Below, piece by piece: positions 8,440 to 41,242 of a DNA stretch of 64,000 bases. Where the stretch lies: contig CAZOJE010000003.1 in the NCBI GenBank assembly GCA_964580065.1, positions 18,441-82,440 on the forward strand, given 5' to 3'. Numbering within the stretch: the first letter of the stretch is position 1; every line of letters begins with the position of its first letter. The stretch is from an uncultured Candidatus Saccharibacteria bacterium (GTDB lineage: Bacteria; Patescibacteriota; UBA1384; DTJR01). The notes beneath the pieces were generated by a model. The model saw nothing but the letters and a program-made list of their open reading frames with translations, made no database searches and was not told the DNA's origin. A program made the position numbers and the translations under genes.

Positions 8440-8543
8440 TATTTGTCTCCTTTTATAATATATTTTTTACCTGGTTAACTCAACGAAAGATATTACCCTT
8501 GTTCACAAAACTTTGCCAGACTAACTCTTTGGCGGCAAATTCT

Positions 8544-9176: not shown

Positions 9177-9229
9177 GAAATCTCCTTCAATTTTTATTTG
9201 ATAAATGTTTTTTTATTTTTTCCAACTCT

Positions 9230-9925
9230 TTAAAGGAATTTAAAGCTTGACAATACGTGTTGAAAAACACTGTAATTTATATCACTAGACATTCCTAAGT
9301 AAGAAATTTCATACGTCGCAGTGCCATTAGTTACAAGCACCCCAACCCCAGGGTCTGTGCCTGCCCAGACTGCTTCTAGAGCTGACTGTCCAGCAACAGT
9401 AATATTTTTTTCGGATAAATGCGGTTGCGGTGTAAACTTTTTTAATTGGTCATACCATTGCGAGGCTGTCTCGTCCGAGGGTTTGTTTGCTAATACTTGA
9501 ACCATAATCATATTCGTTGTGTCAGTCTTTGGCGGTGAGAAATCAACAAAAACGCCTGCGTCAGTCGGATCGTTACATAATATGCAGCTCGAAATTTCCC
9601 AGTCGTGGGGATATTCACTGCTCCAGCCGCTTTTACTCGTAAATAAAGACCATTGCGAGCTGTCGCTTGATAGAGATTTCGCCGAGTTAGCGGACGCCGA
9701 ACTCGTTGCACTAGCAGATGGACTAATTGACGATCTTGTCGTTTGCAAACTGGTCACTTGGCTTTGCAGCTCGGTGATTTGGGCATTTAGGTCGTTCTTT
9801 TCTTTCGTGGCTTTGTTATTTACATAAGCATAAGCACCACCACCAAAAACAACTGCTGTGAGTAAGATTAGTAAAGTAACAGTTACACCAGACATGCCAT
9901 TCTTGGTTTGCATTTGCTCATCCAT
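9230..9925 (-). CDS. Membrane-anchored secreted protein, paralog family member 3
   Basis: 231 aa with the same conserved N-terminal module and a different C-terminal domain containing CxxC (SSCILCNDP). Confidence 0.6.
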   Translation of the reverse strand: MDEQMQTKNGMSGVTVTLLILLTAVVFGGGAYAYVNNKATKEKNDLNAQITELQSQVTSLQTTRSSISPSASATSSASANSAKSLSSDSSQWSLFTSKSGWSSEYPHDWEISSCILCNDPTDAGVFVDFSPPKTDTTNMIMVQVLANKPSDETASQWYDQLKKFTPQPHLSEKNITVAGQSALEAVWAGTDPGVGVLVTNGTATYEISYLGMSSDINYSVFQHVLSSFKFL

Positions 9926-9948
9926 AGTGCTTTCCTTTCTAATTTATT

Positions 9949-10590
9949 TTACTTGGTTAATTGGAAGGTGGAGAGGATTTGGGTTAAGACAGCATCAACA
10001 TCCGCCTCATTGATATCAATATTATAATACGCCCTTACACTAACGATGTGATTACTATCTTTGTATTCGGCTTCTGTATATCGATCTTTTTCGTAACTCC
10101 CAATACCTTTTAAATTGGTAATTTTCCAACTAAGTCCATTATATGAGGGGGTTTTTTCTGAAATTATATTATAGCCCTCTGGTCCGCCAGCGTTATCTGT
10201 TATCTCAAAAACTTCTATTGAAACATTTTTATATTTTTCAGACGCAGAAGTTAGTTTCACACCGTCTAGACTGGGTGTATTTATGCTATTTTCCAACCAT
10301 CCGTTGGGGTATTTGAAACTAAAATTATATTTAGAATTGATATACTTTGTCAATTCAGCCGTCGCGCTTGTCGTGGCACTTGTTGATGTGGTAGCCGACG
10401 CTGTCGTTTGCAGACTGGCCACTTGGCTTTGTAGATCGGTGATTTGCGCATTCAGGCCGTTCTTTTCTTTCGTGGCTTTGTTATTTACATAAGCATAAGC
10501 ACCACCACCAAAAACAACTGCCGCTAGTAAGATCAGCAAAGTGATCATTGCACCAGACATGCCTTTTTTGGTTTGCATTTGCTCATCCAT
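9949..10590 (-). CDS. Membrane-anchored secreted protein, paralog family member 4
   Basis: 213 aa with the conserved N-terminal module and a C-terminal KYNFSFKYPNGW motif domain. Confidence 0.6.
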   Translation of the reverse strand: MDEQMQTKKGMSGAMITLLILLAAVVFGGGAYAYVNNKATKEKNGLNAQITDLQSQVASLQTTASATTSTSATTSATAELTKYINSKYNFSFKYPNGWLENSINTPSLDGVKLTSASEKYKNVSIEVFEITDNAGGPEGYNIISEKTPSYNGLSWKITNLKGIGSYEKDRYTEAEYKDSNHIVSVRAYYNIDINEADVDAVLTQILSTFQLTK

Positions 10591-10910: not shown

Positions 10911-10957
10911 TCCGCGTTAGGTGCAGATAAAGGGAAAGTGTGCAAACGTTTTAGTGA

Positions 10958-11044
10958 TGGTGCCGGGGAGAGGACTCGAACCTCCACACTTTTGCAAGCG
11001 CCAGCTCCTAAAGCTGGTGCGTCTACCAATTTCGCCACCCCGGC
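10958..11044 (-). tRNA. tRNA-Leu (anticodon TAG), class II with long variable arm, CCA encoded
   Basis: Reverse complement reads GCCGGGGTGGCGAAATTGGTAGACGCACCAGCTTTAGGAGCTGG...GGAGGTTCGAGTCCTCTCCCCGGCACCA. 7-bp acceptor stem, anticodon loop TTTAGGA. Confidence 0.8.
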
Positions 11045-11145
11045 ATATCAAACATTTGCTATCTCGGAGAGATTATAGAACAAAATCCCCCTTCTGCCAA
11101 GAGAAAAGACTATTTTTCAAAAAATTTTGTACTATACTAATATAT

Positions 11146-11616
11146 ATGAAAAAAGACGAGAATAATTACGACGTTTCAAAAATTCTCGCCGTGGTAATTT
11201 TGGCTATCGTTGGTATTTCTGGCTGTTTTTTTGTTCTTTGGCAAATGTCAAGCCAAAAATCTGCCGCTAACGCCAAAAACACTCAAGCCGTTGCCACCCA
11301 AAAAGAAATTGATGAACTCAATCAAAAAATCGACGAACTCAACGCTTCACTGCAAGAGGTGCAAAACAGCAATTCCGACGATAGCTCTGGCACAGTCAAG
11401 GGTGATTCAACCTCGTCCGTCACCGACAAAATAAACATTAATACGGCCTCTTTGAGCGATCTCGATAAATTAGACGGAATCGGCCCCACCTACGCCCAGA
11501 GAATTATTGATTATCGTTCATCTAACAACGGATTTAAATCAATTGAGGAAATTAAAAACGTTAAAGGCATTGGCGATAAAACTTTTGAAAAACTCAAAAA
11601 TCAAATCACTATCTAG
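11146..11616 (+). CDS. comEA: Competence protein ComEA (helix-hairpin-helix DNA-binding)
   Basis: Internal Met start (MKKDENNY...). N-terminal TM helix. C-terminal ININTASLSDLDKLDGIGPTYAQRIIDYR...GIGDKTFEKLK tandem HhH motifs. Confidence 0.7.
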   Translation: MKKDENNYDVSKILAVVILAIVGISGCFFVLWQMSSQKSAANAKNTQAVATQKEIDELNQKIDELNASLQEVQNSNSDDSSGTVKGDSTSSVTDKININTASLSDLDKLDGIGPTYAQRIIDYRSSNNGFKSIEEIKNVKGIGDKTFEKLKNQITI

Positions 11617-13668: not shown

Positions 13669-14203
13669 ATTTTATCTTTTCCTGAACTGTTTTTTTGTCT
13701 TCAGGAATTTTACTTAAATAGGGGATAATTTCTTGGCGTTTATAACCCAAACTGGTTAACGCTTCAAGCGTTTCGTCGTTTTCTCCCATTAAATCAGCTA
13801 TATCGCCAGACGCCTTGCCTTTAAGCTCAACAATAATTTTGGCCGCAACCTTTGTTCCTACGCCGCTAACTGCCCGAAAAGCATTTGAATCAGATTTGGC
13901 TAAAGCGGTCGTAAATTTTTCTTGGCCTAGTGTACCGATAATCGCCAAAGCCACCTTCGGACCAACCCCTGAAACCCCCAAAAGAAGTTCAAAAATTTTT
14001 AGCTCGCTAGGGGAGTCGAATCCGTAAAGATCGTCAGTGTCTTCTCTTATAAGATGATAGATAAAAAACTCCGCCTCGTCGCCCTCTTTTTTTCGCTCAA
14101 TTAAATCGGGTTTGGCGAAAACCTTATACCCCACTGCGCTATCCCCTACGGCCACATAATTGGCCCCTTTATAAATAATTTTTCCCTTAAGATAAGCTAT
14201 CAT
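13637..14203 (-). CDS. ruvA: Holliday junction DNA helicase RuvA
   Basis: 188 aa with MIAYLKGKI... N-terminus and GVSGVGPKVALAI HhH motifs. Confidence 0.85.
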   Translation of the reverse strand: MIAYLKGKIIYKGANYVAVGDSAVGYKVFAKPDLIERKKEGDEAEFFIYHLIREDTDDLYGFDSPSELKIFELLLGVSGVGPKVALAIIGTLGQEKFTTALAKSDSNAFRAVSGVGTKVAAKIIVELKGKASGDIADLMGENDETLEALTSLGYKRQEIIPYLSKIPEDKKTVQEKIKYVLAHVGKNK

Positions 14204-15080
14204 GTCTTGTCCTGCTAGTTGCGCGCATTTTTAAATTGTTTATGGCATTATATCCGGCAATCGCCGCTCCCACTGCCGGACCGATTTTGCCCAATGGCGA
14301 TTTTTTGACCTTTACACCGAGCTCGATAAAAGACGGCTCAAAGGCCGAAAAATTTTCTAAAATGTCGCCCGAAAGAATAAAAATCTCCGGATCAAAAAGC
14401 ATTTTTATATTAACCAAACCCGTCAACAAACTTTCTTTAAGATCTTTTAAAATCTGCTTTGAAACCAGTTCGCTTTGCGGATTTTCTTTGAGAATTTGAT
14501 AAATCGATCGGCCGGTTAGCGCTTCAATCCCCTCACCCGAAACCAACGCACCAAAACTGCCCGCGCTGTGCCGCTTTTCGCGAGTAATATCTAAAACCAT
14601 TTCGCGGATATTGCCCGAAGCATTGTGCTTGCCGCGATAAACTTTGCCGCCAACCACAAAGGCCGCCCCAACATCGCGGCCAATTTCCACAAAAGCAATG
14701 TCGCCAAATTCTTTGGCCGCTCCGAATGCCCTTTCCGCCAAGATCGAGCAAAATTCTCGTCTTTGGATAAAAATCGGTAAATTTAGCTTACGCGAAAGCA
14801 TTTGATAAATATCCGCCCCTTCGAGTTCTTTGATCGGCGAGCTGACAACTTTTTTACCGCTAGAATCAAAAACCGCCGGCAAAGCCACACCCACCGCTAT
14901 CGCTTGATGGAAATTTGGCAATGAAGTAACAGTTTTTTCGATTTTAGAAATAATTGATTCGCGTCCCAGTTTGGGAATATAAGGACGAGCCAGTTTTTCA
15001 ACCGTGGCAAAATTCCCGTCCAAAAGAACGGCTTCGATCCCGCCAAGCCCATAGCTGACACCCGCAATATATTTGTTCAT
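14187..15080 (-). CDS. ROK family sugar kinase/regulator
   Basis: 297 aa with ROK-type N-terminal ATPase motifs (GVSYGLGGIEAVLLD). Confidence 0.65.
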   Translation of the reverse strand: MNKYIAGVSYGLGGIEAVLLDGNFATVEKLARPYIPKLGRESIISKIEKTVTSLPNFHQAIAVGVALPAVFDSSGKKVVSSPIKELEGADIYQMLSRKLNLPIFIQRREFCSILAERAFGAAKEFGDIAFVEIGRDVGAAFVVGGKVYRGKHNASGNIREMVLDITREKRHSAGSFGALVSGEGIEALTGRSIYQILKENPQSELVSKQILKDLKESLLTGLVNIKMLFDPEIFILSGDILENFSAFEPSFIELGVKVKKSPLGKIGPAVGAAIAGYNAINNLKMRATSRTRHDSLS

Positions 15081-15180: not shown

Positions 15181-16119
15181 TTATTTTTTGAGATTTTCGT
15201 AAATTTCTCTTATTCCGTCTTCTAGCTCAACGGTCGGACTGTAACCAAGTTCGGTGGAAATTTTGTTGATATCGGCTAATTGCGATCTAACGTAGCCCTC
15301 TTTGACTGGATTAGGAATAAAATTCGGCTCGATATTCTTGCCCATGACTTTATTAATCACACCAACCAGATCAATTAAATTGATACATTTATTGGTGCCG
15401 ATATTAAAGACTGTAAAGCCATATTTTTTTTCATTCAACATCGCTTTTTCAATACCTTGAACGACATCTTTGACGTTAGTAAAGTCGCGCTCTTGCTTTC
15501 CGTCGCCGTACAAAACTGGCTGTTCGTCTTTAGCCATAAGCCAAATAAATTGCGAAACAAGATTAGCAAAAGTGCCCTTATGGTTTTCGTTCAAACCATA
15601 AATTGACATAAAACGAAAAGCAATTATTTCTAATTCCTCCGAGGAAGAAAACACGCGCGATGCGCCTTCTTGGGCAAATTTTGTGACCGAATAATGATTC
15701 GGCGGCGTGACTTGCTGATCTTCAGTCAACGGCGTGGGATTGTTACCGTAAATCGAACTGGTCGAAGCAAACAGCATTTTTTTGGCGCCGATTTCCTTAG
15801 CAAACTGCATCACGCGAATGTGGCCAGCGACGTTATTTTGATAGGCCCAATACATATCATTAGCAAACATCGGCGCCGAGGAAGAGGCCGCCAAATGAAC
15901 AATATAATCAAAGCTGTTGCCCGTTCGCTCAAGATCTTCTTTTTTATTTACGTCACCCTCAACAAATCTCACTTTATCCGAAAGATTTTCTGTTTTGCCC
16001 AAAGACAAATTATCAATCACAACAACTTCATGGCCTTTTTCAGCCATCATGTTAGCAAGATTACTGCCGATAAATCCCGCCCCGCCCGTTACTAAAATTT
16101 TTGCCATATTTTCCTCCAT
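15181..16119 (-). CDS. NAD-dependent nucleotide-sugar epimerase/dehydratase (SDR, UDP-glucose 4-epimerase-like)
   Basis: Rossmann GGAGFIGSNL motif and extended SDR layout. The likely start is MAKILVTGG (coordinate 16107). Confidence 0.75.
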   Translation of the reverse strand: MEENMAKILVTGGAGFIGSNLANMMAEKGHEVVVIDNLSLGKTENLSDKVRFVEGDVNKKEDLERTGNSFDYIVHLAASSSAPMFANDMYWAYQNNVAGHIRVMQFAKEIGAKKMLFASTSSIYGNNPTPLTEDQQVTPPNHYSVTKFAQEGASRVFSSSEELEIIAFRFMSIYGLNENHKGTFANLVSQFIWLMAKDEQPVLYGDGKQERDFTNVKDVVQGIEKAMLNEKKYGFTVFNIGTNKCINLIDLVGVINKVMGKNIEPNFIPNPVKEGYVRSQLADINKISTELGYSPTVELEDGIREIYENLKK

Positions 16120-16161: not shown

Positions 16162-17523
16162 TTATTTTTCAATTAATTCTTTAACTTCTTGCGTTTTTGC
16201 CTTCAATAGTTTTTCATTTTTTGCTTCCAAATTCAACTTGGCCGCTGGCTCGGTGTTGGAAGCGCGAAAATTCATTCGCCAGTCGGGATATTCTATTGTC
16301 AGACCGTCAAGATCATCTTGTTTGGCATCAGTATACTTGGTTTTTAGCTTACTGATAATTGCCGAGGGGTCTTCAATTTTGAATTTAATTTCGTCAATCA
16401 TGAAATGATCTTTTTGAAACGGCGCCACCAATTCGGAAATTTTTTTGCCCGATTTAGACAACAACTCCCAAATCAACAAAAACGGAATAATGCCATTATC
16501 CATGAAATGTGTTTCTTCAAAAAAATAATGGGCGGTCATTTCAGCGCCAAATGAAGCCCCAACCCGCCCCATCGTTTCTTTCATAAAACGATAGCCCGAT
16601 TTAGAAGTCACCATTTCAACCCCTACTTTTTGGCAGGCGTTTTGTAGCGGCCAAATAATGCGCGGGTCGCAAACAATTGGTCTTTTGCCATGCTTAGACA
16701 CAATCGTTTCAACTAAAGCGGCTGTGATATAGGGAGCATTGATGAAATTGCCTTTTTCGTCCAAGAAAAAAACCCGATCGCCGTCGCCGTCCCACATTAA
16801 GGTAAAATCATAATCACCCGCCGCCGCTTTTTGCAAAGCTTCCTTTTGAATTTCCGGATTTAGAGGATTTGGTTCACAAAGACCGCCGAATTTGAAATCG
16901 GGCTGTTTGTGAATGAAATCTGCCTCAACCGGCAAATCTTTCAAAATTTTATCAATAATCAATCCGACCGATCCATGCGTCGTGTCAAAAAGAAGTTTTT
17001 TTCGGCTAAGCTTTTTTTCATCAATCAAAGAGCGGACAAAATTAACGTAATCGTCAAAAATATCAACTTTCTTCACTGTACCTTTGGGCCCATCATACGG
17101 CTCCACACCCTCGAGAGAAAATTTTTTCAACTGCTCGTCATTACCAGCAATCGTAACAGCGTCCTCTCGCATCATCTTCATACCGCCATAGCCGACCGGA
17201 TTGTGCGAAGCGGACAAAATAATTCCACCATCAAGGCCGTAATTAAAAACGGCAAAACCAATCATCGGGTTAGTCATTTGCCCCGCGTCTTGAACATTTA
17301 CACCACGATCAGTTAAGGCCTTAACCACCGCCGCAAACATTTTGTCGCTAGCTTCGCGCAAGTCCCGTCCCACCACCACCATTTTCGGTTTTATTTTTTC
17401 CGCATAAGCCGAGGCGATTTTGTAAGCCACCTCTTCATTTACTTGATCCGGGTAAGTGCCCCTGATGTCATAAGCGCGAAATATTTTTTCGTCCACTGTA
17501 CCCTCCGATTTTAGTTTTATCAA
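16162..17523 (-). CDS. Phosphomannomutase/phosphoglucomutase
   Basis: 453 aa with active-site SASHNP motif and a metal-binding DGDGDR loop. Confidence 0.85.
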   Translation of the reverse strand: MIKLKSEGTVDEKIFRAYDIRGTYPDQVNEEVAYKIASAYAEKIKPKMVVVGRDLREASDKMFAAVVKALTDRGVNVQDAGQMTNPMIGFAVFNYGLDGGIILSASHNPVGYGGMKMMREDAVTIAGNDEQLKKFSLEGVEPYDGPKGTVKKVDIFDDYVNFVRSLIDEKKLSRKKLLFDTTHGSVGLIIDKILKDLPVEADFIHKQPDFKFGGLCEPNPLNPEIQKEALQKAAAGDYDFTLMWDGDGDRVFFLDEKGNFINAPYITAALVETIVSKHGKRPIVCDPRIIWPLQNACQKVGVEMVTSKSGYRFMKETMGRVGASFGAEMTAHYFFEETHFMDNGIIPFLLIWELLSKSGKKISELVAPFQKDHFMIDEIKFKIEDPSAIISKLKTKYTDAKQDDLDGLTIEYPDWRMNFRASNTEPAAKLNLEAKNEKLLKAKTQEVKELIEK

Positions 17524-18611
17524 AGATATAAATGCTTCCCTTCGTCTTTGAGTTTTTCAAGCAATTTCTTTACATCTTGGGCTTTGTTTCTGTTGGCAAT
17601 TAATATTGCATCGGGAGTATCTATCACAATTACGTCCTCCAGCCCCAATGTTGCAATCATTTTGTCGCCGGCATAAATGAGAGAATTCTGACTATCAACA
17701 TCGAGATGGTAACCTCGCGAAATCATTTTTGTGCTGTAATGCTCGCTTAAAACATCAAATAATGTCCCCCAGTTGCCAATGTCGCTCCAACCCAAATCAG
17801 CCGGAATAACTAAAATCTTCTTAAAATCAGGTTGCTCGATAATAGCGTTCTCGAACTGTTCCGATTCTAACGAACCATAAAGGTTCTTTATTTTGATTTG
17901 GGTAGCGCCGTTCCCCGTTCCAGTCAATTTGCCGATTTCGCTTATGACTTCGGCCATTTCGGGACGATATTTTTTGATCCAGCCGCTTAACTTTGCCGCT
18001 TTGAAAAAGTAATAAGCGCCGTTCCAGAGATATTCCCAGCTCTGCAAATATTTTTCGGCCGTTTTTTGGTCTGGTTTTTCGACAAATTTTTCCACTTCAA
18101 AAATCTTTTCGGAATCAATTTCACACAAAGACGAGCCGATTTTGATGTAGCCCAACCCCGTGTCTGGCTTAGTTGGGTTGATACCAACCGCCACTAAATG
18201 ATCGGGATATTTTTTCACTGCTTCAAAAGCAATCTTGACGGTGTTGACAAAAATATCAACATTTTTGACAATGTGGTCTGAAGCAATGGTGGCAATGACA
18301 GCGTCTTTATCGCGCTTGCCGATAATTTCAGCAATATATGCTAGAGCTGGCGCGGTATTTTTGCCCGAGGGCTCAATGATGAAATTTTCTTCCGGAACAT
18401 TTGGCAGCTGTTTTTTGACTTCCTCGGCATATTGAGAAACCGTCGAGACAAAAATATTTTTTTCCGCTAAAGCCCTGGATAGGCGACTATATGTCTCCTG
18501 AATCAAAGTTTTTTCCGAAACTAAATTATGAAACTGTTTTGGTTTCTTTTTGCGGCTCATCGGCCAAAGTCTGGTACCCGACCCACCCGCCATTATCACG
18601 GCATAATTCAT
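17520..18611 (-). CDS. manC: Mannose-1-phosphate guanylyltransferase
   Basis: 363 aa with MNYAVIMAGGSGTRLWP... nucleotidyltransferase N-terminus. Confidence 0.8.
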   Translation of the reverse strand: MNYAVIMAGGSGTRLWPMSRKKKPKQFHNLVSEKTLIQETYSRLSRALAEKNIFVSTVSQYAEEVKKQLPNVPEENFIIEPSGKNTAPALAYIAEIIGKRDKDAVIATIASDHIVKNVDIFVNTVKIAFEAVKKYPDHLVAVGINPTKPDTGLGYIKIGSSLCEIDSEKIFEVEKFVEKPDQKTAEKYLQSWEYLWNGAYYFFKAAKLSGWIKKYRPEMAEVISEIGKLTGTGNGATQIKIKNLYGSLESEQFENAIIEQPDFKKILVIPADLGWSDIGNWGTLFDVLSEHYSTKMISRGYHLDVDSQNSLIYAGDKMIATLGLEDVIVIDTPDAILIANRNKAQDVKKLLEKLKDEGKHLYL

Positions 18612-18758: not shown

Positions 18759-20270
18759 CTATTTTTTTGTCTTCGGCGAGACCAAAGAATCAACCAAAGC
18801 AACCAGTTTTTTGTAATAGTTTTTAGCTTCCTCTCTCGAGTGGCCAATACAAACCGCGCCGAAACGACCAAGTTCAGTTATCATACCGGGCATAAATAAA
18901 ATGACGCCCTTCTTTGTATCTTTATTGAAAGAGATTTTGCTAGAAGCAACTGTCTCAATCAAAGTTTTTGGTGTTAATTTTTTATACTTTTCCGATTCTA
19001 TAAAGTCCATAGAGTAGTAATAAATTGGAGTATCACCGCATTGTAGCAGACCTGTTTTGCGGTTATATTTCGCTCCAGTCAAGAAATAAGTAATCCTAAA
19101 TGGATGTGTCGTCCCGCCTTTACGCAAATTAATTTCGATGGGATAAACCGTAAAATTGTCTGACTGTTTAACGGCTAGAAAATCTATCGAAAAATTTCCT
19201 ACCATACCTTTTTTCGACATCCAATTTGCAACTAATTCAGCTTGTTTGATTATCTCTTTTTTATAATTCTCGTTGGCAGGGAATTCACATCCCGCATAGC
19301 GCTGGCTACCCGGGCCGCCCAATATTTGCTCATGCGTAGAAACTATATTCACTTTTCCCGATGGCAAAAGCTGGATTTGAACGCTCGGAGAATGATTTTT
19401 TCCTCCTATATAAAGTTCGCAAATCCCTCCCAACCTATCAAATTCTTTTTTAAATCCTGCATAATTTTGTTTTTCTGATTGAAAAATGGCATATTTATCA
19501 AATCTTTTTTCAAAAATATCAAAAGCTGTCTTACTGGAAATTTTTCCTTGATTATTCAATTCATCCGATAAAAAATCGCCCATATTAAAAATACAGTTTC
19601 CCTTGCCAGACGAGCTTTCATTAAGTTTAATCATAATCTTTTCAGATCCAGGAGAATCTTCGTATAATTTAACCATTTTTTCGAAAAGCAAAACGGTGCT
19701 TTTGATATAAGCAAAACCATTAATCAGCTTTAAACCGACAAGTTGAAATATTTTCCTAGCACCACTTTTAGTGCCAATATAGTCAAACTTTTCCCGATGG
19801 CCAAAAATAGAAATGCCTAATTCTTTAGCTATAGCCCTTTCTTGTGCTGTTGTATTATAACAACGCAACATTGCCATCGCTTTATTCGGAATGCTGTCTG
19901 ATATTTTTTTCAACGCACCCTCATCCTTCAGCAATCTTTCCGATAAAGATTGAACTGAAGCGGCGCTTGTTTTGTTTACTTCAATATGTACTAATCTTGC
20001 AAACGCACTCTTAATTTCGTTTGGCTTGGTAAAAATTGTCGATATGTAATATTCAAAAAGCTCTGTGTTAAATCCTTCAGAAGTAACATATATAATTCGG
20101 GTTTTTTTATACTTTAAAAGGAACAAGAAAAACAACATCCTTTCCTCATAGAAGTCGAGTCCTTTAACCAGCGAAAGATTAAAACTGTCAGAATTCAAAC
20201 CAGACAACACGACAAAGGTACGCTCGTCGCGACAGTCTAAATCGGCTATTTTTTTGGCTATTTTTTTCAT
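18759..20270 (-). CDS. Hypothetical protein, possible ATP-grasp-like ligase (sugar-transfer-associated type?)
   Basis: 503 aa. The C-terminal half has ...SIDFLAVKQSDNFTVYPIEINLRKGG..., reminiscent of the ATP-grasp E-x-N metal site. Assignment is inference only. Confidence 0.45.
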   Translation of the reverse strand: MKKIAKKIADLDCRDERTFVVLSGLNSDSFNLSLVKGLDFYEERMLFFLFLLKYKKTRIIYVTSEGFNTELFEYYISTIFTKPNEIKSAFARLVHIEVNKTSAASVQSLSERLLKDEGALKKISDSIPNKAMAMLRCYNTTAQERAIAKELGISIFGHREKFDYIGTKSGARKIFQLVGLKLINGFAYIKSTVLLFEKMVKLYEDSPGSEKIMIKLNESSSGKGNCIFNMGDFLSDELNNQGKISSKTAFDIFEKRFDKYAIFQSEKQNYAGFKKEFDRLGGICELYIGGKNHSPSVQIQLLPSGKVNIVSTHEQILGGPGSQRYAGCEFPANENYKKEIIKQAELVANWMSKKGMVGNFSIDFLAVKQSDNFTVYPIEINLRKGGTTHPFRITYFLTGAKYNRKTGLLQCGDTPIYYYSMDFIESEKYKKLTPKTLIETVASSKISFNKDTKKGVILFMPGMITELGRFGAVCIGHSREEAKNYYKKLVALVDSLVSPKTKK

Positions 20271-20360
20271 TGTAAAAATTGTTTTTACTGTCTTACGGAT
20301 TGATTATCAGATTAAATATAGGTATAATTTACACTGGAAAACTAAGTTTGGCAACCAAAA

Positions 20361-21230
20361 ATGATTAAAATTGCAATTATTACAACTGATAATCCCAGAA
20401 CCGACCCCAGTATTACGTTACTAGTGTCCCAGCAGGAGGAGTTTGGGGTACAATTCATTATAATTAATCCATATAAAAAATATGATGGCGGAACTTTCGA
20501 TGATATAGATATTTTTTACCCCAGAATAACTGGCAGAGACGAAAAAGATATCGAAAACCAAATAAATTTTTACATCAAATTGGTAAAAAAATATCACAAA
20601 CCGTACATCGGCAATCTTAAATATCTGCCACACCAGAAAGACAAATACTACCAAAGCAAATGGGCAACAGAAACAGGTCTAACAGTACCAGCCACGTTCA
20701 AATACTCACCATTTTTTTTATCAAGAAAAATAGAAAAATTAGGTGGTTTGCCAATTGTCTTGAAAGCAAGAGAGTCATTTGGTGGCGCAGATGTTCACCT
20801 TGTTGAAAGCATGTCTGACTTCAGAAAAAAAATTGCTCCTGACAAAAAATATATAGTACAGCAATTTTTAAAATCCAAAGACCTAGCTAAAGATTATAGG
20901 GTGTACATAGTTGGCAACAGAATTGTTGGAGGGCTAATAAGAACCAGTCAATCAGAAACCGAATTTAGGTCAAACACATCGTTAGGCGCGATAGCAGAAT
21001 TCAACAACCCGGGGTCAGGCCTTTCCGCTTTGGCAAAAAAATATGTCAAATCGTTTGGATTTGAAATAATGTGTGTTGATTTTATGAAATATAAAGGCCG
21101 ATATTATTTCGTCGAAGCCAATGATGCATTTTCCGTTAAAACCGATAATGAACCACAAAAAATCGTTGTTTCCCGCTCAATAATAAGCTACCTTAAAAAT
21201 AAAGTTAATGAGTACAAAAATGGAAAGTAA
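20361..21230 (+). CDS. RimK-family ATP-grasp ligase (alpha-L-glutamate ligase-like)
   Basis: 289 aa: N-terminal pre-ATP-grasp, LPIVLKA..SFGG.DVHLVES, DYRVYIVGNRIVGG.IRTS, N.S.GAIAE, YYFVEANDAFSV, typical RimK organisation. Confidence 0.7.
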   Translation: MIKIAIITTDNPRTDPSITLLVSQQEEFGVQFIIINPYKKYDGGTFDDIDIFYPRITGRDEKDIENQINFYIKLVKKYHKPYIGNLKYLPHQKDKYYQSKWATETGLTVPATFKYSPFFLSRKIEKLGGLPIVLKARESFGGADVHLVESMSDFRKKIAPDKKYIVQQFLKSKDLAKDYRVYIVGNRIVGGLIRTSQSETEFRSNTSLGAIAEFNNPGSGLSALAKKYVKSFGFEIMCVDFMKYKGRYYFVEANDAFSVKTDNEPQKIVVSRSIISYLKNKVNEYKNGK

Positions 21231-22188
21231 ATTAATCGAACACAAATCACTTGCTTACATTATCGACGAATGTAAGAAAAGGGGCGTAGCTTGCAAGATT
21301 TTGTTCATAAACGTCCTCGAGTTAGAGTATGGCGGGAGAAAAGAGATTTTATATGATATTTTGAGTCCTAAAACGTCTGCTACTGCCTATTGTATCTGCA
21401 AATCCAAAGATACCGCAAAATATTTTCTCAAAAAAGCCGGTCTCTCAACTCCCAATGGGATTTCGTTCGATCGTAGCAAAGAGGATCATGCTTTGGATTA
21501 TATCCGAAAAGAGAACTTTAATTGCGTAATGAAACCCAATGATGGTTTGGGCGGCGATTTGGTTTTCACTGACATCGACTCGATCAGCGACTTTAAAAAT
21601 GCCTGGAAAGAAATCTTAAGTAAATACGAAAGAGTTCTGATTGAAAAAAAAGTGGCCGGAGATGAATACAGGTTCTTAGCCACAAAAAATAAGACCCTGT
21701 CTATTACTAAAAGGGTTCCTGCATATATTATAGGAAACGGTAAAAATTCCATCAGACAACTCATAGATATAAAAAATGACCGCGCCATCAGCGAAGGACG
21801 TAAAAATATTTCGCCCGACAATCCTATGGCCAATCATTTGGCCAAACAAGGTCTGACTCTTGATTCTATAATCGAAAACAAAAAAACTGTTTATCTAAGA
21901 CAAAACACAAATACTTCAACGGGTGGTGAAAGCATTAGCTTCGCCAAATATATCAATTCAAGTTTAGCTGATGTAGCAGTTAAAGCAGTCAACGCGATTC
22001 CAGGTTTAGAGTGGGCGGGGGTAGATATTATGACAGAGAATATTGATGGTAGTGAAAATTACAATATTATCGAAATAAATGCCAGCCCCGGAATCAATAT
22101 TCACCAAAACCCAACCGTCGGTGAAAAAGTTAACGTCGCCTCCGACATACTAGAAACAATTTTTCCGGAGTTAAAAAAGAAGTTTTAA
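21208..22188 (+). CDS. Stand-alone ATP-grasp ligase homologous to cyanophycin synthetase (CphA) G domain, paralog 1
   Basis: RVPAYIIGNGKNSIRQLID..N...R......P..K...........G...DS........V.LR.NTNTSTGGES...........A..A..AIPGL..AGVDIM......NIIEINASPGI..H..P..G matches the CphA ATP-grasp core. No M or N domain. The start may be Met at 21220. Confidence 0.65.
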   Translation: MSTKMESKLIEHKSLAYIIDECKKRGVACKILFINVLELEYGGRKEILYDILSPKTSATAYCICKSKDTAKYFLKKAGLSTPNGISFDRSKEDHALDYIRKENFNCVMKPNDGLGGDLVFTDIDSISDFKNAWKEILSKYERVLIEKKVAGDEYRFLATKNKTLSITKRVPAYIIGNGKNSIRQLIDIKNDRAISEGRKNISPDNPMANHLAKQGLTLDSIIENKKTVYLRQNTNTSTGGESISFAKYINSSLADVAVKAVNAIPGLEWAGVDIMTENIDGSENYNIIEINASPGINIHQNPTVGEKVNVASDILETIFPELKKKF

Positions 22189-22189
22189 A

Positions 22190-23182
22190 ATGAGATTTAG
22201 TAATTTTTGCATTGCAGCTCGTCTAATCCTCGAAGAAGCTTATTCAAGAAAAATCATTATTGATGAAATTTCTAGCGGAGAAGTTTGTGAATTAAAGTTT
22301 GGCGACCACAAAGAGTATCTTCGTTCTCGATGTAGTTCTAAAACAACCTCTGTAGCTAATTACATATGTAGACACAAGGATATCTCAAAGGACTTCTTAA
22401 GTTTAGCCGGTTTATCCCTCGCCCAAGGAAAAACATTCATGAACGACCAATTAAATAAAGCTATTTCTTATTGCGAGAAGGAAAAACTATGGCCCATTGT
22501 CGCGAAACCAGTCTCCGCCGGGAACGGAAGGTCCGTGTTTGTAGGTATTAAAAACAAAAAAGAACTCAAGAAAATATGGGGTGAAATTGATGACAAAGAA
22601 GGTAAAAATCTAATTGAAGAGTGCCACGAGGGTGTCGAAACAAGGGTTTTGGTAACAAGAGAAAAAGCGCTGGCCGCGATACAGAGGGTACCAGCTAATG
22701 TGACAGGTAATGGCAAATCAACCATACAAGATCTGATATATGAAAAAAATCTTGACCCTAGAAGAAAAGAAAGCGAAGATGAGCCAATCGTAAAAATAAA
22801 AATAGATGCCGCAATGTTACTCAAATTAGAAAGCGAAGGGCTGAATCTTGACTCTATAGTCGAAAAAGACAAGACTGTTTTTCTTAGAAATAATTCTAAT
22901 ATTTCTACTGGTGGCGACAGTTACGATGTAACAGATGAAGTACACGAATCTGTCAAAGAGATCGCTCTAAAAGCAATAAATTCCATTCCGGGCCTTCTAT
23001 ATGCAGGTGTTGATATATTATCAAAGGACTTTAGAAAACCGCAAACTAAGGACAGCTATATAGTCGTAGAAATAAATTCTAACCCAGGAATTGATATGCA
23101 TCATTTCCCATATTCTGGAAAACCCAGGAATGTTGCCAAGGACATTGTGGACGTAATTTTTCCCGAGACCAAAACCGACTAA
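22190..23182 (+). CDS. Stand-alone ATP-grasp ligase homologous to cyanophycin synthetase (CphA) G domain, paralog 2
   Basis: VTGNGKSTIQDLIYEKNLDPRRKESEDEPIVKIKID...LRNNSNISTGGDSYDVTDEVH......A.....GL.YAGVDIL....IVVEINSNPGIDMHHFPYSGKPRNVAKDIVDVIFP closely matches the CphA G domain including the C-terminal PRNVA..I.D..FP. Confidence 0.7.
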   Translation: MRFSNFCIAARLILEEAYSRKIIIDEISSGEVCELKFGDHKEYLRSRCSSKTTSVANYICRHKDISKDFLSLAGLSLAQGKTFMNDQLNKAISYCEKEKLWPIVAKPVSAGNGRSVFVGIKNKKELKKIWGEIDDKEGKNLIEECHEGVETRVLVTREKALAAIQRVPANVTGNGKSTIQDLIYEKNLDPRRKESEDEPIVKIKIDAAMLLKLESEGLNLDSIVEKDKTVFLRNNSNISTGGDSYDVTDEVHESVKEIALKAINSIPGLLYAGVDILSKDFRKPQTKDSYIVVEINSNPGIDMHHFPYSGKPRNVAKDIVDVIFPETKTD

Positions 23183-23658
23183 GTATTGATGTGGCAGAGG
23201 GCAACCGCGATGGCATCAACTGTGTCGTCTTGAGTAATTTTGCATCCTCGTAAGTGGAGCGAGACCATTTTTATCATCTGCTCCTTGGTGGCGTGGCCAT
23301 AACCAGCGATAGCAAGTTTGATTGCGTTCGGTTTGTATTCAGAAATTATTAAACCGGCTTTCTTAGCCACCAGCATAGCCACACCGCGCGCGTGAGCTAC
23401 TGAAATTCCGGTTTTTACATTCTTCATAAAGAATATTTCTTCAATCGCCAACTCGCAAGGCGCGTATTTTTTGATAACTTTTTCGAGTTCCGAAGCAATT
23501 AATTCTAATCTATCCGCCAAGGGTGTGTTCGCCTTGGTTTCAACGCAACCGCAATCCAAAAGTTTGACCGCGCTGGCCTGATGCAAAACCGCCCAACCCA
23601 GCTTTCCTGTTCCCGGGTCAACCCCAAGCACTATCCGTTCTTTTTTCCCCTGCGTCAC
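23179..23658 (-). CDS. ruvC: Crossover junction endodeoxyribonuclease RuvC
   Basis: 159 aa with GVDPGTGKLGWAVL N-terminus (RNase H fold) and catalytic D/E/D/D layout. Confidence 0.85.
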   Translation of the reverse strand: MTQGKKERIVLGVDPGTGKLGWAVLHQASAVKLLDCGCVETKANTPLADRLELIASELEKVIKKYAPCELAIEEIFFMKNVKTGISVAHARGVAMLVAKKAGLIISEYKPNAIKLAIAGYGHATKEQMIKMVSLHLRGCKITQDDTVDAIAVALCHINT

Positions 23659-23674: not shown

Positions 23675-24388
23675 TCATCCTAAATTGCTGCTAACATTTG
23701 TAACGTCATCAAGTTCGTCAAGAGCTTCGAGCAGTTTGATTGCCTTAGCTTCATCAGTTTCAGAAAGAGCAGTGGTGGTTTTGGGCTGCCAAACCAATTC
23801 AGCCGATTCACATGTTAGCCCAGCCGCCGCCAAAGCATCTCGAACCGCCGCCAATTCCTCCGGTTTTGAATATATCAGATAATCATTACCGGCCTTTTGG
23901 TAATCCTCCGCTCCAGAGTCAATAATAATCAGCTCAATTTCATCGTTAGTTTTGCCTTGGCTACTGATTTTAATTTCCCCTTTTCGCTCAAAAAGATAAG
24001 CCACCGAGCCAGAACCGGCTTGTTTGCCACCGTGCTTGTTTAAAACCGCTTTAATTTCCGATGAAGCGCGATTGCGATTATCAGTGAGAGATTCGATTAA
24101 AATGGCAATGCCGGAAGGGCCATAGGCCTCATATAAAACTTCTTCAATTTGCGTACCACCCAGCTCACCCGTTCCGCGCTTGATGGCGCGTTCGATTTTA
24201 TCTTTGGGCATATTAGCCGCGCGGGCTTTATCAATCGCCAGACGAAGTTGAAAGTTCATCGTTGGATCGCCGCCGGTTCGAGCCGCAACCGAAATCAAGT
24301 TAGAAATTTTTGTAAATAAACTACTGCGGCGCGCGTCCGTCACCGCTTTTTGGTGCTTGGTGGTTGCCCATTTTGAATGACCTGACAT
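23675..24388 (-). CDS. yebC: YebC/PmpR family DNA-binding transcriptional regulator
   Basis: MSGHSKWATTKHQKA... hallmark N-terminus. The ORF-track start at 24421 is probably an upstream extension. Confidence 0.85.
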   Translation of the reverse strand: MSGHSKWATTKHQKAVTDARRSSLFTKISNLISVAARTGGDPTMNFQLRLAIDKARAANMPKDKIERAIKRGTGELGGTQIEEVLYEAYGPSGIAILIESLTDNRNRASSEIKAVLNKHGGKQAGSGSVAYLFERKGEIKISSQGKTNDEIELIIIDSGAEDYQKAGNDYLIYSKPEELAAVRDALAAAGLTCESAELVWQPKTTTALSETDEAKAIKLLEALDELDDVTNVSSNLG

Positions 24389-24490
24389 ATTCCTCCAATC
24401 TATAGAAGTCTTGAATCGCAAGCGATACAGGTTTACATTATAATAAATTAGGCCTTGTTTTCAAGCAGGCAGATCCTTGACAAGGAGGTT

Positions 24491-24841
24491 ATGTCTGTGG
24501 GTGCTCATGCGAGCCGTCACGATCCTCACGTCATTGTCGCAGTCGAGAATCTAGACCCCCTTTTAGTCGAGGAAGCCGCTTCCCTCGCCTGTGCTCGCGT
24601 ACACTTTTTACGCTCTGACCAGCTTGGCAACAAGCCCTACCCTGCCAACGCTGTCATTGCCGATCACGAAGTGTCCCGTTGGGTCGCCCAGCAGATTACT
24701 AATGGGCTGATTCCACCGGAAACAACCGTTTTCTGCGTTCATCCGGAAAGTGAGTACGAACCCCAAACTGACCCCAAAGGAGTACACCATTGCAGTCTTC
24801 GCGATCTCGTCAACGTGATTCAGAGCGCACACTTCGCTTAG
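24491..24841 (+). CDS. Hypothetical protein encoded on high-GC island 1
   Basis: ATG at 24491 preceded by AAGGAGG. 117 aa. Local GC is much higher than the flanks. No recognisable family. Confidence 0.4.
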   Translation: MSVGAHASRHDPHVIVAVENLDPLLVEEAASLACARVHFLRSDQLGNKPYPANAVIADHEVSRWVAQQITNGLIPPETTVFCVHPESEYEPQTDPKGVHHCSLRDLVNVIQSAHFA

Positions 24842-24927
24842 GGGCTTGACTTCTAGGCGGAAAAAGCGCACAATTAGCTGTTTTGTCGCACCTTGCCATA
24901 AAAAAAACCAGGAAGGAGGTGGATGGC

Positions 24928-25389
24928 ATGTCCATCCACCAGCAGCCCAGTCGGACGACGGTTCTGGCGGCCGCGATCTTGGTCGCGGCCGTGATCTTCG
25001 CATTGTTCCTCCTGCTTGCGCCTCCGGCGCACGCGGGAAGGATCGCTGTCTGGATCGGCGGGCCGCCGCCGTGCCCGCCGCCGTTCCAGGCACATTGCCC
25101 ACCCCCGTGGGCAATGTGTTCACCTCCACCCCCTTACTGTCCACCCCCGCCGCCGTGCGCCCCGCCATGGGCGGGCCCGGGGCCCTTCGGCCCCATCGAA
25201 ATGCGGCCCGGCCCGGCGCCTTGGGGCTTTCCGGCCCAAGGCGGTGTCGACTACTACCACCGCGACGAGACGTACTCCCGTCGCGGTGGGCTCACGGTCG
25301 ACGAGACTATTCGTTTCCGCGATCAGTTCGGAAACTCGGTCCGGATCAACCGATCCGGACCCGTTCCGCCGCCTCCCCGCTTCTGGTAG
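24928..25389 (+). CDS. Secreted Pro/Cys-rich hypothetical protein on high-GC island 1
   Basis: ATG at 24928 preceded by GGAGGTG. Signal-anchor helix plus AHA-G cleavage-like site, then PPPCPPP/CPPPPPC repeats. A terminator hairpin follows at 25487. Confidence 0.45.
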   Translation: MSIHQQPSRTTVLAAAILVAAVIFALFLLLAPPAHAGRIAVWIGGPPPCPPPFQAHCPPPWAMCSPPPPYCPPPPPCAPPWAGPGPFGPIEMRPGPAPWGFPAQGGVDYYHRDETYSRRGGLTVDETIRFRDQFGNSVRINRSGPVPPPPRFW

Positions 25390-25486
25390 CTCAACCGCCA
25401 GAAGCAAAATGTCCTAAAAGCGGCCAGTCAGTTGGTACCGCCCCTCACCCTCCCTCGCGGGCCAACTGGCTGATCACCGCTTTCAG

Positions 25487-25524
25487 GGCCCCGGCAGTCT
25501 ATTTGTCGGGGCCTTTTTCTTTTT
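25487..25524 (+). terminator. Rho-independent terminator (GGCCCCG...CGGGGCC + T-run) closing the high-GC island operon
   Basis: Stem GGCCCCG/CGGGGCC followed by TTTTTCTTTTT. Confidence 0.5.
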
Positions 25525-25532
25525 ATCAGCTA

Positions 25533-30356: not shown

Positions 30357-31496
30357 GTGGAAAATCTCGACAAAAAAATTATTGCCGTTCAAAAAAGCAC
30401 TCGCACCACTTTTTCGTGTTTTAATCCGTTGCACAATAAACTTCGGGCCAAATTCCCATGGTATTATTCGTGGCATGTCAAATCATTTGCTAATTTTGCC
30501 CATAAGTTAGTTTTGCTCGCCTACACCTTAAACATTGTCGCCTTCGTCCTTTTTTCCAGTGTGCTTGTTTACAACAAAACGGCCACTAATATTGCTATGA
30601 AGGCCGCTTCGGAGCAGACGGGTCTCAACACAAAAACAATATGGGAGGCAGGAACTTTAGACAATATCGACACGACGTCTTCGGTAAACCAAATGAAAAT
30701 AGCAGATTTAAGCAGTAGCCCTATTGATTTATCTAATAAAACAATCGCTGTGACTTACGATGAGGCAAACAAAGCTAGTGCTAATGACAAAAACGAAAAC
30801 ACTTATTGGTCTGTTACCGATCTTATCTGGCCGAATAACCAATCATGGACTATCGATATAGGAGAAAATTACACTGTTGCGAAAATGAAATCATTAACTT
30901 CTACCAGTACAACAGCATGGACCAACCTCATATATTCATATAGCACGGATGGGACAAGTTTCACCCCTACGGCCGACAACTATACTGTAACCACCGGCAC
31001 CCCCGCGTGGGATGAAAGTGCAGATATAAATGCTACGGCTCGTTATCTCCGAATAACTTTTTCAGGCAACGATCCCGATAATTCGTCTGACGGTTATCTC
31101 TACGAATTTCAGGCATACGGGCCGGGTTATGCCACCCACACCACCGCCGCTAATCAATTAGACGGAGGAAGCAATTTTCTGACATGGGAAACTTTTACTC
31201 CTACTCAAACGGTCTCGGACAATGCAACGATACAATATAGATTTAGAACTTCTACCGATGGAAGCACTTGGACCGCTTGGACGGCTTATCAATCAGGAAC
31301 ATCATTTGATTTATCTAAATTAGTCACAAACAGTGTTGGAACAGGAGAAGATATTACTTATTATAAATATCTTCAGATTGAAGCTAAACTAACTTCTTTA
31401 GATGGGGTATCAACGCCGATCATTACTGACTATACGGTTAATCATCATACCAATCGGGCGCCTACGGCGCCCGCGGAGCCGAGTGCCGCTCTCTAA
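30357..31496 (+). CDS. Membrane-anchored surface protein with F5/8 type C (discoidin)-like domains, paralog A
   Basis: GTG start. TM helix. NENTYWSVTD...QSWTIDIGENYTV...YSYSTDGTSFT matches the discoidin pattern. The C-terminal 120 aa is identical to paralog B. Confidence 0.6.
   Translation: MENLDKKIIAVQKSTRTTFSCFNPLHNKLRAKFPWYYSWHVKSFANFAHKLVLLAYTLNIVAFVLFSSVLVYNKTATNIAMKAASEQTGLNTKTIWEAGTLDNIDTTSSVNQMKIADLSSSPIDLSNKTIAVTYDEANKASANDKNENTYWSVTDLIWPNNQSWTIDIGENYTVAKMKSLTSTSTTAWTNLIYSYSTDGTSFTPTADNYTVTTGTPAWDESADINATARYLRITFSGNDPDNSSDGYLYEFQAYGPGYATHTTAANQLDGGSNFLTWETFTPTQTVSDNATIQYRFRTSTDGSTWTAWTAYQSGTSFDLSKLVTNSVGTGEDITYYKYLQIEAKLTSLDGVSTPIITDYTVNHHTNRAPTAPAEPSAAL
31131..31487 (+). repeat. 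~357-bp segment >98% identical to 32401-32757 (shared 3' coding module of the two discoidin-protein genes)
   Basis: Direct comparison finds only about three mismatches over ~357 bp. Confidence 0.8.
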
Positions 31497-31557
31497 AGTG
31501 CTCTCCAATACCTTTTAGCGAGGCGACATAATCACTAAAATTTGTTAAAATGGACGA

Positions 31558-41167: not shown

Positions 41168-41242
41168 ATTTAAATATATATTGACAAAACTAGATTGTGG
41201 CATCTGGTATAATTGACGTGTACAAGTTTTAATAGGAGAAAA

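Follow-up and report, generated by a model that had tools for sequence, protein, structure and literature searches.

The 64,000-nucleotide stretch of DNA analysed here (the window), from an uncultured Candidatus Saccharibacteria bacterium, holds a cluster of four genes, A to D, which lies between ruvC and ruvA and encodes four ATP-grasp ligases with intact catalytic residues. A (18759..20270, minus strand) encodes a 503-amino-acid (aa) ligase of the BesA/PGM1 family. Divergent from A, the plus-strand genes B, C and D form an operon. Its first gene, B (20361..21230), encodes a 289-aa ligase of the RimK family. C (21208..22188; 326 aa), the copy nearer A, and D (22190..23182; 330 aa), the copy farther from A, encode stand-alone ATP-grasp enzymes of the type found as the G domain of cyanophycin synthetase (CphA1) and as the C-terminal module of GshF (G-type ligases). 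B and C overlap by 11-23 nt, C and D are separated by 1 nt, and the three genes are translationally coupled; gene callers choose an alternative start for C, the ATG at 21220 (322 aa). The 90-bp intergenic region between A and B (20271..20360) has promoter-like hexamers on both strands, TTGATT-17-TATAAT upstream of B (plus strand, 20300-20328, 10/12 consensus) and TTGCCA-17-TAAATT upstream of A (minus strand, 20354-20326, 9/12 consensus), which are consensus matches only, their region-wide count being no higher than the shuffled expectation. A sequence-only reading of this DNA had proposed four ATP-grasp-type ligases here. The open reading frames (ORFs) and the Pfam, NCBIfam and PDB matches agree with it on coordinates and strands, and all four proteins, carboxylate-amine ligases by family, match ATP-grasp hidden Markov models.

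The four ligases and their nearest relatives

Pfam assigned A to ATP-grasp_IQCH (PF24923, 2e-15), ATP-grasp_3 (PF02655) and PGM1_C (PF18105). The protein is composed of a pre-ATP-grasp region, a central ATP-grasp domain (~residues 164-403) and PGM1_C at the C-terminus; the sequence-only reading had recognised the ATP-grasp character correctly but had placed it in the C-terminal part. Against the PDB, A aligned with BesA (8yi6) across residues 30-493 at 3e-30. An AlphaFold2 model built on 20 homologs (pLDDT 86.6) was matched by Foldseek to BesA 8yi6 (TM 0.77/0.84) and PGM1 3wvq (0.67), with the Streptomyces ATP-grasp peptide ligases 8ynd/8ynq and PGM1 3wvr as further top matches. A therefore shares with BesA and PGM1 the full-length architecture and fold, including the PGM1_C domain. 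The motifs E379-I-N381-x-R383-K384 and G166-x-K168-S169 are invariant across the 20 homologs. The product of BesA is gamma-Glu-propargylglycine (bioRxiv 10.1101/2025.10.10.681649). In contrast to a true BesA, A is only 23% identical to it and scores below the NCBIfam equivalog cutoff (4e-34, 118 bits vs 750), and its neighbours are manC and the RimK- and G-type ligases, with no genes of the Bes or pheganomycin pathways nearby. The family to which A belongs is very large, with more than 4,800 matches labelled 'PGM1-related'. In the loci retrieved from outside Patescibacteria A is a solo gene without recurring neighbours, and those loci are for this reason uninformative on function.

B matched Pfam RimK (PF08443) at 2.9e-18 (66.6 bits, cutoff 21), and its closest solved proteins are of the RimK type (7qyr/5zct, 2.5e-8 to 5e-7), as the sequence-only reading had proposed. 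It carries the motifs IVLKARESFGG and CVDF...FVEAND, and shares the RimK-type ATP-grasp domain and a similar size with RimK and its relatives LysX, CofF and MptN. Its NCBIfam scores were under every cutoff (63.6 bits vs 143.4 for TIGR00768, 38.9 vs 331 for RimK NF007764, and weaker matches to CofF, LysX and RimK) and far enough below them to rule out B as a canonical RimK acting on S6 or as LysX, CofF or MptN. Unlike RimK and LysX systems, the locus has no RimB peptidase or LysW-like carrier nearby, and no RimB/Zn_protease homolog was found in the window. Homologs of B at 47% identity or more number only three in the protein database, and two of these share the layout of the window.

ATP-grasp enzymes also cross-link ribosomal precursor peptides in graspetide and other clusters for ribosomally synthesised and post-translationally modified peptides. 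Such clusters are reported in Candidate Phyla Radiation (CPR) bacteria, with precursors and with a different ligase family (PMC8939145). PGM1 itself ligates onto ribosomal peptides, and B weakly matches graspetide maturase models (E 1e-4 to 8e-4), though at 19-21 bits against cutoffs of 350-425 and far less well than it fits the RimK family (1.8e-17). The G type lies outside the graspetide ligase families. No precursor-sized ORF was found in or beside the cluster, where the gaps of 90 and 147 bp hold implausible ORFs of 23-52 aa. We regard a graspetide-like cluster as extremely unlikely.

C and D are tandem paralogs, 41% identical over ~300 residues (E 5e-67). In NCBIfam both matched the cyanophycin synthetase model TIGR02068, of 862 positions, over one part only (C, profile 160-476, 2.4e-64, 218 bits; D, profile 161-475, 1.5e-81, 275 bits; cutoff 850). 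Both also matched positions 435-756 of the GshAB model NF002688 (C, 1.6e-50, 172 bits; D, 3.7e-66, 224 bits; cutoff 425). The alignment with PDB entries is limited to CphA1 residues ~168-482, which make up the G domain: D matched CphA1 7lg5 (1.2e-50) and GshF 3ln7 (3e-50) equally, and C matched CphA1 7wac (6e-33). The AlphaFold2 model of D (pLDDT 93.5) superposed on the G domain of TeCphA1 (7wae) with TMq 0.86 (32% identity over the aligned structures), and on the C-terminal module of Streptococcus agalactiae GshF (3ln6) with TMq 0.82. C reached 25.5 bits against ATPgrasp_ST (PF14397), under the cutoff of 31.4. The sequence-only reading had called the two proteins CphA G-domain paralogs lacking the N and M domains. 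The tandem paralogy, the match to the G domain and the missing domains are all borne out, and the G-domain motif string that it quoted is present in D, but the proteins are equally similar to the GshF module.

Catalytic and specificity residues were mapped in an alignment of C, D, 30 homologs from Patescibacteria and one from TM6, three GshF proteins and SuCphA1, using the residue roles established for CphA1 (Miyakawa et al. 2022, PMC9427784). The residues for ATP, Mg and acyl-phosphate (K220, K261, E300, R309, R323, R390, N394, G398/G399, D431, E450, N452 and H460) are invariant in the whole alignment, GshF included, and C and D also keep the N394-x-S396-x-G-G loop. As all of these residues are kept, C and D look catalytically competent. 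The same residues fail to discriminate between the CphA1 and GshF families because they are equally conserved in GshF. In CphA1, the Arg side chain of the primer is recognised by E215 and the alpha-carboxylate of the incoming Asp by R458, and H267 is a P-loop residue (PMC9427784). At these positions C has Cys, Gly and Asn (E215, H267 and R458, respectively) and D has Tyr, Asn and Asp, so that the two proteins differ both from CphA1 and from each other.

C and D thus share with CphA1 the ATP-grasp fold of the G domain, made up of Gcore, Glid and G-omega; unlike CphA1, they lack the N domain and the MurE-like M domain, have all three of these residues replaced, and are 326-330 aa long vs ~870-910 aa. 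The domain content and the replaced substrate residues rule out a canonical cyanophycin synthetase. A split, non-canonical synthetase of a cyanophycin-like or poly-Asp/Glu storage polymer could still be imagined, in which C and D polymerise the backbone and A adds side-chain residues in place of the M domain. The fit of C and D to the CphA1 G domain and the ligation of a side-chain carboxylate by BesA, the relative of A, are consistent with this, and RimK is able to make poly-alpha-Glu (PMC11957051). However, the N domain that would anchor the polymer is retained, judging by chain lengths, in all solved polymerising relatives (CphA1 and CphA2). No cyanophycinase, isoaspartyl dipeptidase or S51 peptidase was seen among the Pfam-scanned ORFs of the 64-kb window, and the hypervariability described below is not expected of a storage polymer. 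We consider such a synthetase very unlikely. A poly-Asp or cyanophycin-like product, which the sequence-only reading had entertained, is also not favoured on account of the likeness to GshF, the gshA context of a Leptospira homolog (see below) and the lack of conservation of E215 and R458.

The likeness of C and D to the C-terminal module of GshF is as strong as that to CphA1 in both sequence and structure. In contrast to GshF, neither A-D nor their neighbours contain a Glu_cys_ligase domain, the locus has two paralogs and two other ligases rather than one enzyme, and glutathione-related neighbours are absent. C and D also align with the ATP-grasp half (profile ~241-547) of N-acetylglutaminylglutamine amide (NAGGN) synthetase (TIGR03103) at E 1e-44 (6.8e-44 for C), a dipeptide-forming member of the same ATP-grasp subfamily; the score is ~150 bits vs a cutoff of 569, and the GNAT domain and asnO-type amidotransferase of NAGGN systems are not in the window. 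NCBIfam scores far under the cutoffs rule out a BesA, GshF or NAGGN synthetase identity for A, C and D. In Leptospira, a stand-alone G-type homolog of 335 aa, 37% identical to D, lies directly after gshA (locus L177, 5407-8008), near genes for gamma-glutamyl transpeptidase, glutaredoxins, glutathione S-transferase and BolA. By its context this homolog is probably one half of a split GshF, a stand-alone enzyme making a tripeptide. The NCBI label of this short protein, 'bifunctional GshA/GshB', is overstated, and many stand-alone G-type proteins are labelled 'cyanophycin synthetase' at JGI.

C and D are best described as stand-alone members of the subfamily formed by the CphA G domain, the GshF C-terminal module and NAGGN synthetase, in which each enzyme joins a single amino acid to a peptide-like acceptor at its C-terminal carboxylate. 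The two paralogs probably take different substrates. Each of the four enzymes can be placed in an established superfamily and subfamily; all fall short at the equivalog level, and no characterised operon has this combination. No family reaches its NCBIfam cutoff, and the set fits neither a classical cyanophycin nor an S6 glutamylation locus, as the sequence-only reading had held. The literature yielded no characterised operon of this kind with a known product, and full-text searches found no paper describing this ligase cluster in Patescibacteria.

Two forms of a conserved ligase module

Related loci (given L numbers) were taken from genome, metagenome and assembly collections and analysed with a local phmmer query panel and Pfam. 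Homologs of D are nearly all stand-alone proteins of 320-355 aa from Patescibacteria (e.g. Paceibacteria, Woesebacteria, Minisyncoccia and Saccharibacteria), and their loci take two forms. In type I, one to three ligases of the G or RimK type are transcribed divergently from A. This form comprises 11 loci (the window, L007, L086, L087, L089, L090, L092, L174, L178, L179 and L183), located mostly between yebC-ruvC and ruvA(-ruvB). Type II, likewise found in 11 loci (L006, L008-L012, L015, L017, L021, L175 and L176), runs from a 7TM_transglut membrane protein, often with PKD domains, to an ATPgrasp_ST ligase, which in some cases carries a fused RimB-like retropepsin domain, and then to one to three G-type ligases. 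Some type II loci add a MATCAP/DUF1704-like (PF08014) peptidase or a RimK/TTL-like ligase before the G-type genes; L021 shows the 7TM, ATPgrasp_ST and G genes only. Seven of the 11 type II loci lie directly after yebC-ruvC (L006, L008, L009, L010, L011, L175 and L176; the L011 contig starts at ruvC). The two forms exclude each other's hallmarks: A occurs in none of the type II loci, and 7TM or ATPgrasp_ST genes occur in none of the type I loci. L090 is a partial hybrid, with MATCAP, G and RimK genes divergent from A.

In the window, the anchor genes ruvC (23179-23658, minus strand; Pfam RuvC 1e-38) and yebC (23675-24421, minus strand; YebC NF001030 4e-89) are context rather than members of the system. 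Both forms counted together, yebC-ruvC precede the ATP-grasp cassette in L006-L011, L086, L089, L174-L176, L178, L179 and L183. The sequence-only reading had noted correctly that the block, with manC, phosphomannomutase (PMM), epimerase and ROK genes, separates ruvC-yebC from ruvA-recG. It had treated the block as an insertion, a view that does not hold, as the same position is conserved across Patescibacteria in two alternative forms. Since the module itself is conserved across the phylum, the ligase block between ruvC and ruvA is an old arrangement rather than a recent insertion.

A is the conserved member of this module. When metagenomes were scanned with A, a G gene was found beside it only in L089, L090 and L092 among the 80 loci retrieved; the other loci, at 31-38% identity to A, had no adjoining G gene and no recurring neighbour (the L091 contig begins at A, its upstream side lying outside the contig). 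The module recurs in related genomes, and the exact four-gene version with B is rare: the whole layout is reproduced in L178 and L179, which read recG-ruvA-ROK-epimerase-PMM-(296-aa protein)-manC-A on one side of the divergent region, then B-C-D and ruvC-(GATase)-yebC. The 296-aa protein encoded between manC and PMM (L178 6043-6933, L179 3615-4505) has no counterpart in the window; there, these two genes share 4 nt (17520-17523). It is unrelated to a 325-aa protein in L087, and neither has a Pfam or NCBIfam match. A class-I glutamine amidotransferase (GATase)-like protein of ~340 aa with a faint Peptidase_C26 match (L178 13026-14066, L087 9571-10578) is encoded between ruvC and yebC in L178, adjoins A in L087 and is absent from the window. 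In a neighbour-joining tree, which is rough and does not place D of the window cleanly, G-type copies near A group together (C of the window, L007 and L089), as do copies far from A (L007, L087, L089 and L174). This grouping suggests an old duplication with separate roles for the two copies.

The partner genes of the type II loci resemble RloABC of Pseudomonas aeruginosa, a cassette of a 7TM inactive transglutaminase, an ATP-grasp ligase and a retropepsin. RloABC mutants have envelope, osmotic, beta-lactam, cell-shape and biofilm phenotypes (PMC11957051). Unlike RloABC and type II loci, the window has the BesA/PGM1-type ligase A in place of the 7TM, ATPgrasp_ST and MATCAP components. With the corresponding proteins of L008, L010 and L012 as local phmmer queries, no 7TM or MATCAP homolog was detected in the window, and the ATPgrasp_ST query gave only a weak cross-match to C (1.4e-6); an Rlo-like cassette in the window is ruled out on these grounds. 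As a separate observation, L175 (1-2937) and L176 (1-1741) have arrays of small T4SS_pilin/TrbC-like genes, five to seven in tandem, upstream of yebC-ruvC and the type II cassette at a distance of a few kb.

The peptidases of the sister loci bring up the possibility that the ligases tail a protein at its C-terminus after translation, as RimK does on S6 and TTL on tubulin, and that the MATCAP- or RimB-like peptidases remove the added residues. B is of the RimK family, and the combination of TTL/RimK-like ligases with MATCAP-like (PF08014) peptidases or RimB-like domains in the sister loci, as well as the hybrid order in L090, follows the RimK/RimB and TTL/MATCAP logic of a ligase and a trimming peptidase. 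On the other hand, neither a peptidase partner nor a candidate gene for an acceptor or carrier, such as LysW, was found in the window, B is far under the RimK equivalog cutoffs, and known enzymes of the G and BesA types work on small molecules or polymers rather than on proteins. Protein tailing is, in our view, improbable.

ATP-grasp D-aspartate ligases modify the stem peptide of peptidoglycan in some Gram-positives, and cross-bridge chemistry varies among close relatives. The cluster might likewise act on a peptidoglycan precursor, whose stem peptide would receive a side-chain residue or an interpeptide bridge. The G type is distantly related to Ddl, a PBP1a gene follows the type II cassette in L009, L175 and L176, and the RloABC phenotypes touch beta-lactams and cell shape. 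However, no mur, fem or ddl gene was found in or next to the cluster, and the adjacency of PBP1a is confined to type II loci. We place peptidoglycan modification below protein tailing, as having only a slight chance of being correct.

A divergent cassette, sugar genes and the candidate peptide

L178 and L179 are two metagenomic contigs, whose source samples are independent. At the nucleotide level they are 92-100% identical over most of epimerase-PMM-manC-A, where one 300-nt segment is at 82%, and over ruvC. Identity falls to 54-75% from B through C to 60% of the way into D (L178 9732-12131, corresponding in layout to 20361-23182 of the window), with one break in the A/B intergenic region and the other ~400 nt short of the end of D. 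The encoded proteins show the same contrast: identity is 98-99% for A, 98% for ManC, 95% for PMM and 94% for RuvC, compared to 70% for B, 58% for C and 65% for D. The three alleles, of the window, L178 and L179, are roughly equidistant, and across the wider loci the ligases diverge faster than the ruvC and yebC flanks. The ratio of nonsynonymous to synonymous substitution is uninformative, as the window and L178/L179 have diverged to saturation at synonymous sites. B-C-D thus appears, from these alignments, to be an exchangeable cassette, and its divergence fits a product under diversifying or frequency-dependent selection.

This divergence bears on whether the product could be a soluble gamma-glutamyl peptide, for example a low-molecular-weight thiol resembling glutathione or an osmolyte resembling NAGGN. 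In that case A would make gamma-Glu-X as BesA and GshA do, C and D would extend it like GshF, and B would cap it with alpha-Glu. The closest relative of A, BesA, is a gamma-glutamyl ligase, C and D are as near to the GshF module and NAGGN synthetase as to CphA1, and the Leptospira homolog after gshA resembles a split GshF. A class-I GATase adjoins the module in L087 and L178, and the stand-alone architecture lacks the polymer-anchoring N domain. Yet an essential redox cofactor or osmolyte is not expected to be made by a cassette that differs by 25-46% between near-identical genomes, nor by ligases whose number ranges from 2 to 4 across lineages. No gshA-type or thiol-related gene was found in the window, and the Rlo-like 7TM and peptidase partners of the sister loci would be left unexplained. 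We think a soluble peptide unlikely, though it is the alternative to which we give most weight.

Downstream of A, and on the same strand, lie manC (17520-18611), PMM (16162-17523), a short-chain dehydrogenase/reductase epimerase (15181-16119) and a ROK kinase (14187-15080), all on the minus strand and identified by Pfam and NCBIfam matches. These genes are possibly co-transcribed with A and may be functionally part of the ligase system. Past ROK are ORFs of the sizes of ruvA and recG, which take their identity from homologs with RuvA and RecG Pfam domains in L178 and L086. Sugar genes join the ligase operon in at least five independent arrangements. The clade of the window, including L178 and L179, has the order manC-PMM-epimerase-ROK downstream of A; L086, L087 and L089 have one or two glycosyltransferases of family GT4, with or without PMM, downstream of the G genes; in L092 a sugar-1-phosphate nucleotidyltransferase adjoins G; and a GalT-like gene is present in six loci. 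The link from the ligases to a glycan through these genes is suggestive. Glycan modification, one of the options raised by the sequence-only reading, gains some support from their recurrence, tempered by the differing arrangements and by L007, L174 and L183, which have few or no such genes.

The reading we tentatively prefer, at somewhat short of an even chance, is that the ligases act sequentially to build a short, strain-variable peptide on or alongside a mannose-containing envelope glycoconjugate. Sequential assembly of a short peptide is the likelier part, and the envelope as its destination the less likely one. The four genes would form a ligase relay specific to Patescibacteria. Each enzyme would use ATP to phosphorylate a carboxylate, and an amine would attack the resulting acyl-phosphate, so that residues would be joined singly into a short, defined, non-ribosomal peptide. 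The product would be neither cyanophycin nor a homopolymer, and a ribosomal precursor would not be involved. A would probably catalyse the conserved step, which may be the first amide bond, possibly at a side chain (gamma-glutamyl-type), or the joining of the peptide to a scaffold. B, of the RimK type, and C and D, of the G type, would extend the C-terminal carboxylate with a specificity that varies by paralog and by strain. The peptide would most likely end on, or be made together with, the mannose-containing glycoconjugate of the cell envelope.

The intact catalytic motifs, the differing substrate positions of C and D, the translational coupling of B-C-D, the conservation of the module, the separate grouping of near and far copies, the cassette-like divergence and the recurring sugar genes all speak for such a relay. 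The relatives of these enzymes add one residue to a carboxylate, BesA at the gamma-carboxyl of Glu and the G and RimK types at the C-terminus. In addition, the G-type ligases of type II loci occur together with an ATPgrasp_ST ligase and a 7TM protein of the Rlo-like kind, and three of these loci are followed by PBP1a. Several points weigh on the other side. Specificity is not legible from the sequence. The likeness of A to BesA and of C and D to GshF fits a soluble gamma-glutamyl peptide equally well. L007, L174 and L183 have no sugar genes, or only a GalT-like neighbour, and the glycan link may therefore reflect synteny in compact genomes. No transporter, 7TM protein, flippase or glycosyltransferase was found inside the cluster of the window, and MurJ, at 49801-51360, is distant from it. 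Because the contrast between L178 and L179 rests on two metagenomic contigs, an assembly chimera could conceivably account for it.

A more far-reaching version of the envelope peptide concerns the epibiotic members of the CPR. There the relay would put a short, non-ribosomal peptide on a surface glycoconjugate, and B-C-D would be a specificity cassette swapped by recombination in the conserved flanks on either side, like an O-antigen or capsule serotype locus, so that the peptide would vary by strain and might serve in host attachment or recognition or in phage evasion. Taken as a whole, we hold this to be more doubtful than a soluble peptide and less so than protein tailing. Weaker again is a variant in which a BesA-like and split-GshF-like route, unrelated to GshA/GshB, would yield a new gamma-glutamyl low-molecular-weight peptide cofactor in CPR bacteria.

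Genomic surroundings and significance

The GC content of A-D is 35-38%, compared to 40-47% for the flanking genes and 42% for the window overall. PADLOC models gave zero matches to A-D at E <= 0.01, which rules out a defence system as defined by these models. Phage origin is also ruled out, a scan of viral contigs having given three distant matches only (25-30% identity).

Several other features of the window were recorded. Between yebC and the metallo-beta-lactamase/ComEC genes lies a GC-rich island (24455-25530), with ORFs of 116 aa (24491-24841, 54% GC) and 153 aa (24928-25389, 69% GC, GC3 0.77). The 153-aa ORF combines a hydrophobic segment at the N-terminus with a stretch rich in Pro and Cys (PPPCPPPF..PPPPYCPPPPPC) and is followed by a terminator-like hairpin at ~25486-25523. 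Neither ORF has a Pfam match, and Rfam gave no credible structured RNA on the 24.4-25.6 kb stretch. The island is unlikely to be an assembly chimera, as both genes are also called in an independent Logan contig (L001), and it may have been gained from a high-GC organism. On the minus strand, 7786-10590 holds four tandem paralogs of 210-231 aa, all starting MDEQ../MEEG.. followed by a hydrophobic segment; both scanned copies match a PsbP-like Pfam family weakly, under its cutoff. They look like membrane-anchored or secreted proteins that have expanded in this lineage. A second tandem pair (30357-32799, plus strand; 379 and 413 aa) has near-identical N-termini (V[EK]NLD[KQ]KIIAVQKSTRTTFS..), and its first member has an F5/8 type C (discoidin, carbohydrate-binding) domain. 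The mechanically called ORF of a ComEA-like HHH_3 protein (10921-11616, plus strand) begins at a GTG that overlaps an opposite-strand tRNA (10961-11044, minus strand), and its true start is probably farther downstream. About 20 kb from the cluster are a second HIT-family protein (41213-41719) and a second ROK-family kinase (42655-43518), so that the window holds two ROK paralogs.

Comparative-genomics work reportedly predicted multi-ATP-grasp 'amidoligase' operons as a class, and the Pfam families ATPgrasp_ST and 7TM_transglut presumably reflect that work. Most biosynthetic capacity has gone from the very small genomes of Patescibacteria. Despite this, many of them retain two to five ATP-grasp ligases at one fixed chromosomal site, and the module is unlikely to be dispensable. 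The database labels 'cyanophycin synthetase' and 'GshA/GshB' could falsely imply that CPR genomes encode cyanophycin storage. The four enzymes are small and soluble, and each can be tested individually. If they make a soluble gamma-glutamyl peptide, they would represent a new route to a glutathione-like metabolite. If the product is a peptide of the envelope that varies by strain, it would amount to a new type of surface determinant in host-attached organisms and would offer a concrete handle on their host specificity.

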